From IMG/VR virus record IMGVR_UViG_3300025292_000002, positions 33,568-97,567 of that record: 64,000 nt of DNA; one strand, written 5' to 3'. Position numbers and translations under genes: made by a program. Positions 63,178-63,845 of the stretch are shown piece after piece. Origin of the DNA: a virus (taxonomy: Duplodnaviria > Heunggongvirae > Uroviricota > Caudoviricetes). The notes beneath the pieces were generated by a model. That model saw only the letters and a list, made by a program, of their open reading frames with translations. It was not told where the DNA came from and ran no database searches. Within the stretch, counting starts at the first letter, position 1. The number at the start of each line of letters is the position of its first letter.

Positions 63178-63289
63178 AGGATTATTAACTATATATAATA
63201 ACAAAAACAACAAAAAACAACATGCTCTGAGGAACGTAGTGACGAAGATAGGAATAACGCCAGTTATTCCAAAGAATTATATAGTTACA

Positions 63290-63420
63290 ATATTAACTTA
63301 ATATAGGAAGTATATAGGATATGTATATGATATAGGAATTATATAATATAGGAAGAATATAGTAATTATATATGTAGCTATAGTGAGTATATATAATATA
63401 TATAGTATTTATATAGTAGT
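63290..63420. repeat. AT-rich iteron-like region built from ATATAGGAA(G/T) and TATAT/ATAGT permutations
   Basis: ataggaagtatataggatatgtatatgatataggaattatataatataggaagaatatag...; no ORF. Confidence 0.6.
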
Positions 63421-63426
63421 AATAGT

Positions 63427-63448
63427 TGCGCTACAGACAAGCTGTAGC
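63427..63448. other. GC-rich perfect hairpin (cgctacag-acaag-ctgtagcg) inside the AT-rich non-coding region
   Basis: 8-bp perfect stem; a second hairpin gctca-tggtcg-tgagc follows at about 63466-63482. Confidence 0.5.
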
Positions 63449-63815
63449 GTATCACGCCATTCGCTAAAGCTCATGGTCGTGAGCATCGTTTGTTTGTTAT
63501 GTATTGGCTATTATATCACTAACTCTAAGTAAATATAACTATCCCATATATGTCTGATTAGCTAAAAAAATAAAGCATATCATCGTAACACCATTCAATC
63601 AGACCTTATGGTGTACTCAAGCGATATGCTCAGCTATATTCCTACCAGTATTTATTTTTATACTTGATAATACTAAAAACAAGTTGACGATATATCTAAT
63701 GATAAAGATAGTAACGAGTGTACTTAATTGCAACGGCTACACTACACCTTGAAGTTGATTGATAAAGGAGTAACTTTCAGCTTATAATCTCCAAGTTATT
63801 TAATTGTTATGATAC

Positions 63816-63845
63816 TATTATATTGAATTGCTGGTGATTGTAAGC
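63816..63845 (-). promoter_or_regulatory. conserved phage promoter module (family copy, variant) firing into the 650-bp non-coding region
   Basis: tattatattga-N12-tgtaagc. Confidence 0.5.

Follow-up and report, generated by a model that had tools for sequence, protein, structure and literature searches.

What does a large phage keep in several hundred base pairs that lie between two promoters and encode no recognizable protein? We addressed this question for positions 63177-63816 of a 64,000-nucleotide (nt) window of a tailed-phage genome (record IMGVR_UViG_3300025292_000002, positions 33,568 to 97,567), whose coordinates are used throughout and whose source is a Bacillus-type phage of 97.6 kb. 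The stretch runs from a promoter that we call P1 to a second one, P2, and is the largest part of the window free of open reading frames (ORFs). A reading made from the letters alone (below, the sequence-only reading) had described it as an AT-rich iteron region with embedded GC-rich hairpins, and had named a replication origin, a genome end or a long structured non-coding RNA as features with this appearance. Our analysis indicates that the element is very probably a non-coding RNA unit that sits beside a cohesive-end (cos) terminus and is homologous to zpbP of the Bacillus subtilis plasmid pBS32. We tentatively propose that this unit might serve as a transcription-activated origin of lytic replication.

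A structured RNA behind a SigN-type promoter

The only ORFs between P1 and P2 are 25-49 amino acids (aa) long, and none is conserved in relatives, where stops and frame-breaking indels interrupt them; the earlier claim that no plausible ORF is present was upheld. Both promoters belong to a family, CTTACA-N16-TAYAAT, with 29 copies in the window, all on the minus strand, against 0.06 expected. P1 (63817-63844, minus strand; CTTACA-16-TATAAT) has a SigN-type layout, is the family member closest to the genome end and is kept in the five relatives that cover the position; P2 (63149-63176, minus strand) serves a YonV-like gene. A family promoter on either side had already been noted, at coordinates 1-3 nt away from those found here. 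The window also encodes a SigN-like sigma factor (10437-11027, minus strand; Pfam Sigma70_r2, 24.7 bits), which is 38% identical over 99% of its length (E = 2e-27) to the sigma factor of pBS32-family plasmids. The layout of the promoter family matches that of the published SigN consensus of pBS32: the window promoters carry CAATA directly before the -10 element, and the SigN consensus, TTTACG-N16-TATAAA, carries CAGA in that place. Because a SigN homologue is encoded and the layouts match, the 29 promoters are probably the phage's own sigma regulon, and the SigN-like protein is probably the trans factor for all of them, P1 and P2 included. We note that the entire 64-kb gene array resembles one sigma regulon.

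A strongly conserved alignment block sits directly downstream of P1. We aligned this core across six homologous gaps, those of the window and of loci L004, L006, L008, L009 and L011 (L numbers denote compared loci), which are referred to here as the window clade. The block corresponds to a structured RNA core of 285 nt and eight helices (63532-63816, minus strand), with a predicted 5′ end near 63811. For the six sequences, RNAalifold returned 51 pairs, 21 of them with compensatory changes. Pair counting on the same sequences showed that 98.4% of cells were paired compared to 88.2% in shuffled alignments, and that 21 pairs had double changes compared to 10 (0/500 for both), with 0-2 in the slid-register controls. 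When 11 distinct sequences were used, 95.7% of cells paired compared to 78.6% after shuffling, and double changes were found in 29 of the 51 pairs (0/500 for all measures). On the transcribed strand we counted 44 G·U and 6 A·C cells, and reading the opposite strand lowered pairing to 86.8%. This 44:6 asymmetry indicates that the RNA is made in the direction of P1, with the caveat that the structure was derived from that same strand. The covariance model, R1, found a single copy in the window, at 63532-63816 on the minus strand (269 bits), and exactly one per locus. A single-sequence fold of the core was no more stable than shuffles (z = 0.04), so it is covariation, and covariation only, that carries the structural case.

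The window gave no match at the gathering threshold in Rfam 15, whose scope included packaging RNA (pRNA), 6S RNA, riboswitches, ribozymes and the GOLLD, ROOL and OLE RNAs, and across 63100-64000 only noise with E > 1 was returned. Neither a transfer RNA nor a transfer-messenger RNA was found in the window. The RNA family is a previously undescribed one, absent from Rfam 15. The suggestion of a long structured non-coding RNA in the sequence-only reading was thus strongly supported for the promoter-proximal 285 nt, as judged by covariation, but not for the iteron zone.

The 5′ domain of the RNA (63715-63792, minus strand), which combines an H-type pseudoknot with a hairpin, H3, is the only part common to all lineages; the 3′ domain differs between them. 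In the window, the pseudoknot occupies 63746-63792, where GGAG (63792-63789) pairs with CUCC (63770-63767) and the interleaved AAGUU (63776-63772) pairs with AACUU (63756-63752). Across 15 loci, each of the two stems occurs in five covarying variants: GGAG/CUCC, GGAC/GUCC, GCAG/CUGC, CGGG/CCCG and GGUG/CACC for the outer stem a/a′, and GUGUU/AACAC, AAGUU/AACUU, GAGUU/AACUC, GUUU/AAAC and GUCUU/AAGAC for stem H2. The family consensus is GGAG/CUCC interleaved with GNGUU/AACNC, together with the invariant motifs GCUGA, UUAUCAA and CAAGGU. Hairpin H3 (63745-63717) has a freely covarying stem, with double changes in five of its six pairs, around the conserved loop AGCCnnUGCnAUAAA. Two promoter-like sequences in this part of the window were considered and rejected. 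One is a plus-strand site at 63759-63788 whose -35 element is the reverse complement of the invariant UUAUCAA and whose -10 element, on inspection, is not conserved; the other is the extended -10 sequence TGATATAAT at 63510-63518, which is not conserved either.

The 3′ domain of the window clade includes a long hairpin made of helices 7 and 8 and followed by UUUAUUUUUUU (63564-63632, minus strand). Its helices covary, and it resembles an intrinsic terminator placed inside the RNA. The U-run behind helices 7 and 8 is an insertion found in the window alone, with shorter U4 runs in L009 and L011. Mutually exclusive pairings among the segments AGUAUU, AAUACU and AGUAU were also noted.

Homologues of the RNA and the zpbP unit of pBS32

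Beyond the window clade, R1 gave weaker but significant matches to L019 (72 bits), a 96.6-kb contig of a tail-sheath-encoding phage, to Geobacillus phage GR1 (46 bits), to eight IMG/VR loci and to pBS32. Viral-collection relatives were recovered only by patterns drawn from the 5′ domain; exact and degenerate patterns from the clade-specific 3′ domain and from a downstream hairpin (hairpin B, below) had zero matches in viral, metagenome and genome collections. By DNA similarity, 63100-64000 matched none of 50,697 phage records, and a search for related loci with the YonV protein found none. The RNA was not found in the Staphylococcus Sextaecvirus phages PT1-1 and PT94, in Enterococcus phage VPE25 or in lactococcal phage c2.

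With one copy per genome, the RNA homologues adjoin HNH-terminase modules in about 16 loci, including GR1 and pBS32. The window RNA lies ∼400 nt from the HNH gene at the other genome end (L017) once the genome is circularised, and the RNA is within ∼2 kb of an HNH-TerS-TerL module also in L004, L006, L011, L019, L024, L027, L037, L038 and pBS32. The elements reached through the HNH homologues P0122-P0124 proved unrelated and lack the RNA. In L019 (6774-7444), the RNA is directly upstream of a Tad2-like (anti-Thoeris) gene, and the same phage encodes an ALP_N actin-like protein. A DNA ligase gene (window 59664-60950, minus strand), 1-3 kb downstream of the RNA, is common to the window clade and five loci of the GR1/pBS32 type (L023, L026, L027, L033 and L034); this ligase may seal the cos ends.

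Searching plasmids by blastn, we obtained matches over the pseudoknot domain in 41 Bacillus plasmids of ∼84 kb, all of the pBS32/pLS32 family. Between the window and pBS32, the 5′ domain of the RNA is 78% identical over 83 nt by blastn and scores 44 bits with the covariance model (E = 1e-11). The pBS32 copy is in a 950-nt gap without an annotated gene, bordered on one side by TerL-TerS-HNH pointing away from it and on the other by genes for a 99-aa, a 453-aa and a 3D-domain protein. The 41 nt directly upstream of the pBS32 RNA are identical to the published zpbP promoter (PMC6751061, Table 2), which was mapped from a 5′ end detected by end-enriched RNA sequencing (Rend-seq) and is induced 158-fold by SigN (Burton et al. 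2019, PMC6751061). The counterpart of P1 in pBS32 is thus a Rend-seq-mapped, SigN-dependent promoter, and, because the RNA lies directly behind it, the homologous unit is known to be transcribed, in pBS32 only. The listed operon has a single gene, zpbP, of unknown function, and the next promoter downstream, which corresponds to P2, is the published predicted SigN promoter of zpbQ (PMC6751061).

The two units are alike in several respects. Each has a SigN-type promoter directly upstream with 19 nt between the predicted +1 and the pseudoknot, a second SigN-type promoter downstream (that of zpbQ, equivalent to P2), an AT-rich zone with hairpins between the two, and HNH-TerS-TerL alongside. They differ in that pBS32 has the 3′ domain of the GR1/pBS32 type, which is distinct from that of the window clade, and in that pBS32 is a plasmid-borne defective prophage in which zpbP is not listed as an RNA. 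Relatives of TerL were found on whole contigs of 81-87 kb in isolate assemblies of Bacillus wiedmannii, Priestia and Staphylococcus equorum, which suggests that many pBS32-like plasmid prophages exist.

The genome end and the tail of the unit

The YonV-family gene of the window is carried by the ENA contig ERZ27252043:k141_65391 (97,626 bp), which allowed the genome ends to be located. At one end of this contig (L001 1-36), 36 nt of Illumina adapter are fused directly to window nt 64000; at the other (L017 1-23), 23 nt of the other adapter are followed by GCTCAGTTAACC. Since such adapter junctions assemble only if many fragments end at the exact base, the contig represents the entire linear genome (97,567 bp), whose ends are fixed, and the public record retains adapter contamination at both ends that marks the true termini. 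The right physical end (63989-64000) has the terminal minus-strand sequence CCTCTTATCCTC. L008, an independent contig of a related phage from the Joint Genome Institute (JGI), begins at the homologous base, which precedes the conserved motif CCTAGGGGGATAG by 33 nt. Comparison of 3 kb from each end by blastn revealed no terminal repeat, only adapter bases in common. From fixed ends without a terminal repeat, we assign the genome end to the cos type. The earlier suggestion of a genome-end feature was thus broadly right: a physical end is at 64000, 155 nt past the noted region, and is supported by adapter junctions at both ends and by L008, but the terminal-repeat variant of the suggestion was not borne out.

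Starting 31 nt from the end, the palindrome CCCCTAGGGGG (63959-63969) is present at the same offset in the window, L008, L004, L006 and L011, and may assist cos recognition as an accessory site. The segment 63898-63953, which separates P1 from the palindrome, holds the short direct repeats AAAATGTGGAAAATATAAATA and AAAATGTGAAATATGCAAATA, which could be terminase or regulator sites near cos. The left genome end carries, in order, a small ORF, HNH, TerS of the P27 family, TerL, portal and capsid genes. In relatives whose sequence spans the junction, the HNH-TerS-TerL module diverges from the YonV side across a non-coding gap of 1.0-1.1 kb. The junction sequences of these read-through relatives differ by indels, and end repair at library preparation would remove 3′ overhangs. 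No cos motifs common to different lineages were found.

Fixed ends without terminal redundancy are typical of lambda/HK97-type cos sites with HNH-assisted terminases. The window phage resembles these systems in its fixed, non-redundant ends and in the HNH-TerS(P27)-TerL-portal-protease-capsid order at the other end, whereas it departs from them in that the cos site itself is outside the P1-P2 region.

Downstream of the RNA core, the layout, though not the sequence, is common to all six members of the clade. In order, this tail comprises a CA-rich tract, two hairpins, an AT-rich zone of variable length, a GGAAnnnn/nnnnUUCC hairpin, and a GU- or T-rich tract directly in front of P2. The first tract (63488-63498, minus strand) is unstructured in the window, and a CA- or A-rich tract is found here in all six. 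It may, as modelled, pair with the GU-rich tract at 63200-63221, a long-range helix that appears in the minimum-energy folds of only three of the six clade members. The tandem hairpins (63429-63481, minus strand) are hairpin A (63453-63481), which has a tandem G·A internal loop, and hairpin B (63429-63449), which has a stem of 8 bp; together they fold with z = -3.9. All six members have the two hairpins with unrelated stem sequences, several with tandem G·A loops, and z is -3.9 to -8.3 in four of the six. Two GC hairpins had been described before: hairpin B was confirmed as such, but the second, GCTCA..TGAGC at 63469-63484, is better seen as part of the larger hairpin A.

The AT-rich zone (63276-63425) contains the AT peak of the 64 kb, with 82.5% AT in 120-nt windows within 63261-63430 compared to a mean of 66%, which confirms the AT-richness reported for the region. 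All four window copies of TCCTATAT, counted on both strands, lie within 63301-63353 in a single orientation. They have an irregular spacing of 11, 18 and 16 nt and a core of just 8 bp, and Tandem Repeats Finder (TRF) assigned periods of 16, 29 and 45 nt to this zone. Only the window has these repeats; in relatives, YCTATAT motifs are scattered and number 0-4, with zero in L009 and L011. Other short repeats occupy the equivalent zone of some distant relatives, such as ATATAAATTAAAC three times in L025-L027, and in distant lineages, too, the RNA is followed by an AT-rich zone. What is kept across relatives is thus the composition and position of an AT-rich zone with hairpins on both sides, and not the repeat sequence.

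On the far side of this zone, hairpin C (63251-63270, minus strand), which reads GGAAUAAC-UGGC-GUUAUUCC, keeps its pairing with different inner bases in the window, L004, L006 and L008. The GU-rich tract GUUGUUUUUUGUUGUUUUUGUU (63200-63221, minus strand) then leads to P2; in all relatives P2 is preceded by a T-rich tract, which in L011 is a canonical terminator and in L006 a weak one. A probable end of the P1 transcription unit is this tract. The first protein gene after the unit (61840-63111, minus strand) encodes a P-loop or helicase-like protein with a Pfam YonV_C match, 54% identical to a protein of Staphylococcus phage PT1-1 and 37% to YonV of SPbeta. It had earlier been taken for a P-loop NTPase of unknown function and can now be placed in the YonV family.

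Elsewhere in the window, the genes for nicotinate phosphoribosyltransferase and phosphoribosyl pyrophosphate (PRPP) synthetase at 40673-42960 form a nicotinamide adenine dinucleotide (NAD) salvage module, the only part of 40000-64000 that resembles known phages at the nucleotide level (Bacillus phages, 76-88%). An HNH_3/NUMOD homing-endonuclease-like gene (22161-22706, minus strand) is located among nucleotide-metabolism genes.

Candidate functions of the RNA unit

What might such a unit do? The reading we favour, at a probability of about 0.35, is by analogy with c2: the unit would act in cis as a transcription-activated origin of lytic replication. The origin of the lactococcal Ceduovirus c2 is non-coding, without an ORF or ribosome-binding site, and lies between the first two early promoters in the intergenic region where early and late genes diverge; its PE1 transcript is implicated in transcription-mediated initiation, with both length and structure reported to matter (PMC7150918). 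In the present phage, the SigN-type promoter P1, probably read by the phage's own sigma factor, would drive the ∼285-nt structured RNA, made up of the 5′ H-type pseudoknot, the hairpin with the invariant loop and the long 3′ hairpin domain, with a fast-evolving tail that would end just before P2. As sigma-dependent transcription proceeded through the folded RNA and on into the AT-rich zone, which melts easily, it would open the duplex or supply a primer, and leading-strand synthesis would then run in the direction of the early genes.

Several observations are consistent with this proposal. As in c2, two promoters flank a region without a conserved ORF, and the late and packaging genes diverge, here across cos. 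The region is both the largest ORF-free and the most AT-rich stretch of the window, and gene orientation and GC skew change sign at the junction. Comparable transcription-primed origins are RNA II of ColE1, phi1.1A/B of T7 with its AT-rich region, and oriF and oriG of T4. There, as proposed for the window, transcription from a promoter proceeds into a segment that is rich in AT and unwinds easily, but the window lacks a G-rich hybrid segment of the RNase H type, and the T7 and T4 origins are not known to require a conserved fold of the RNA.

Other observations weigh against an origin of this kind. Very divergent phages have kept the 5′ domain and the invariant unpaired motifs in it, a degree of conservation that exceeds what a primer or R-loop transcript usually needs; conservation of unpaired bases fits an RNA with a specific partner better. 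By comparison, the origin types of c2 phages are mutually unrelated. The transcript has no G-run like that of c2 or ColE1, the c2 origin is not beside cos, and a replication function has been shown for c2 but is a prediction for the window. On the c2 origin the covariance model gave only noise, with no homology to the PE1 transcript, and there is no likeness in sequence or structure apart from one 11-nt identity. The RNA travels with the packaging module, not with replication genes, which are 25-60 kb away (DnaB and PolIII-alpha at 25-37 kb), and in L019 and L037 it points toward HNH-TerS-TerL, opposite to its direction in the window. DnaA boxes occur at a chance count across the window with none clustered at the region, and the GC skew is equally accounted for by gene orientation.

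The 11-nt identity is an observation apart. The 11-mer GGACTGATTGA is the conserved helix 8 loop of the window clade, for which the window itself has GGTCTGATTGA (63596-63606). The 11-mer has one further occurrence, in sense orientation, in the PE1 transcript of c2 (L054 1307-1317, minus strand), and none in the rest of the 54 loci. This match may be due to chance (a rough post hoc estimate of ∼1%).

Only somewhat less probable is a stable RNA that would be made when the sigma factor switches on and would act in trans by binding a conserved protein of phage or host, for example as a modulator of RNA polymerase, an anti-defence decoy or a cofactor in genome-end processing or packaging. The invariant unpaired UUAUCAA, CAAGGU and AGCCnnUGC loop, held within covarying helices across distant lineages, are what such an RNA would be expected to keep. 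The homologue in pBS32 is a discrete transcript (PMC6751061), the window copy has a terminator-like hairpin and U-run directly after the core, and the linkage to HNH-TerS-TerL is constant, with an adjoining anti-defence gene in L019. A trans-acting RNA would, however, leave the conserved AT-rich zone and its hairpins downstream without an explanation, its 3′ domain varies by lineage, and the U-run after the core is present in only three clade members.

We consider it unlikely that the RNA is a cis-regulatory leader, either a riboswitch or attenuator with a conserved aptamer and a variable platform or a processive-antitermination RNA that governs read-through into the early genes. A conserved 5′ pseudoknot joined to a lineage-specific 3′ domain has the architecture of a riboswitch, the mutually exclusive pairings and terminator-like hairpin of the window would suit an attenuator, and the strong promoter directly in front of the RNA opens a gene array of more than 60 kb. 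Against this, the next gene begins only after more than 450 nt and is served by a separate promoter in every relative, the published operon in pBS32 consists of zpbP alone (PMC6751061), and antitermination is unnecessary given 29 internal promoters. No riboswitch or antitermination RNA in Rfam matched.

We give little credence to the idea that the 5′ pseudoknot domain represents a new functional RNA class, either sensing a ligand or protein or catalytic, that serves as a cofactor or switch in genome-end processing or packaging. If it did, phages with a standard terminase would have a pRNA-like or a ribozyme- or riboswitch-like component tied to their cos/HNH-terminase modules. One comparison is the pRNA of phi29 (RF00044), likewise a structured RNA at the extreme end of a phage genome and beside packaging functions. 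Unlike that RNA, the window RNA has no Rfam match and nothing ties it to a packaging motor; phi29 itself has protein-primed ends and lacks TerS and HNH, whereas the window phage uses a standard terminase.

A classical iteron origin, in which a phage initiator would recognise the TCCTATAT repeats and melt the AT-rich DNA beside them, is very improbable. The four clustered direct repeats are real and stand in the most AT-rich DNA of the window, where an AT-rich unwinding element is present, and the equivalent zone of some relatives contains different short repeats (for example ATATAAATTAAAC in L025-L027). But comparison with related phages showed the repeats to be missing in L009 and L011 and dispersed in the others, the spacing is irregular, the core has only 8 bp, no initiator gene is adjacent (the neighbour being YonV-like), DnaA boxes are not enriched, and the replication genes are distant. 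An origin of the iteron type, as the sequence-only reading had envisaged, is therefore not supported, although by analogy an origin of another type, the transcription-activated one, is possible. Because the iterons are not conserved in relatives, we read them as lineage-specific filler; AT-rich, low-complexity DNA readily yields such repeats by slippage, which counts against functional iterons, and from their sequence they look like lineage-specific products of such DNA.

It is hardly credible that the region is instead a packaging signal at the DNA level, such as an extended cosB/cosQ-like terminase-binding region or a terminal-repeat boundary. Its position favours one, less than 1 kb from the physical end and beside the HNH-TerS-TerL module. 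Yet the two genome ends have no repeat in common, the iterons are 650-700 nt from the end and thus far beyond known cos sites, and the candidate accessory palindrome for cos (63959-63969) falls outside the region. Moreover, the conserved elements covary as RNA helices with the 44:6 asymmetry on the transcribed strand, and their stems vary while their loops are conserved, which is the opposite of protein-binding palindromes. Finally, a small-protein or type I toxin gene at 63617-63733 (minus strand), where a 38-aa ORF overlaps the RNA core, was rejected and is almost certainly wrong: the peptide is hydrophobic and SPbeta has the yonT toxin near yonV, but the ORF has a TTG start and a weak, distant ribosome-binding site, and in relatives stops and indels interrupt it although the sequence is conserved in the form of RNA helices.

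Taken together, these data fix the physical ends of the 97.6-kb genome and reinterpret zpbP, the unit of pBS32 that SigN induces 158-fold, as an RNA gene. In pBS32, induction of SigN causes hyperreplication that is not explained by repN and whose mechanism the authors call unclear (PMC6751061). If the transcription-activated origin that we tentatively favour is correct, a sigma-dependent lytic origin would be a candidate answer to how SigN causes this hyperreplication. The RNA family itself spans large phages of Bacillota, the isolated Geobacillus phage GR1, and pBS32, which the model strain B. subtilis NCIB 3610 carries.

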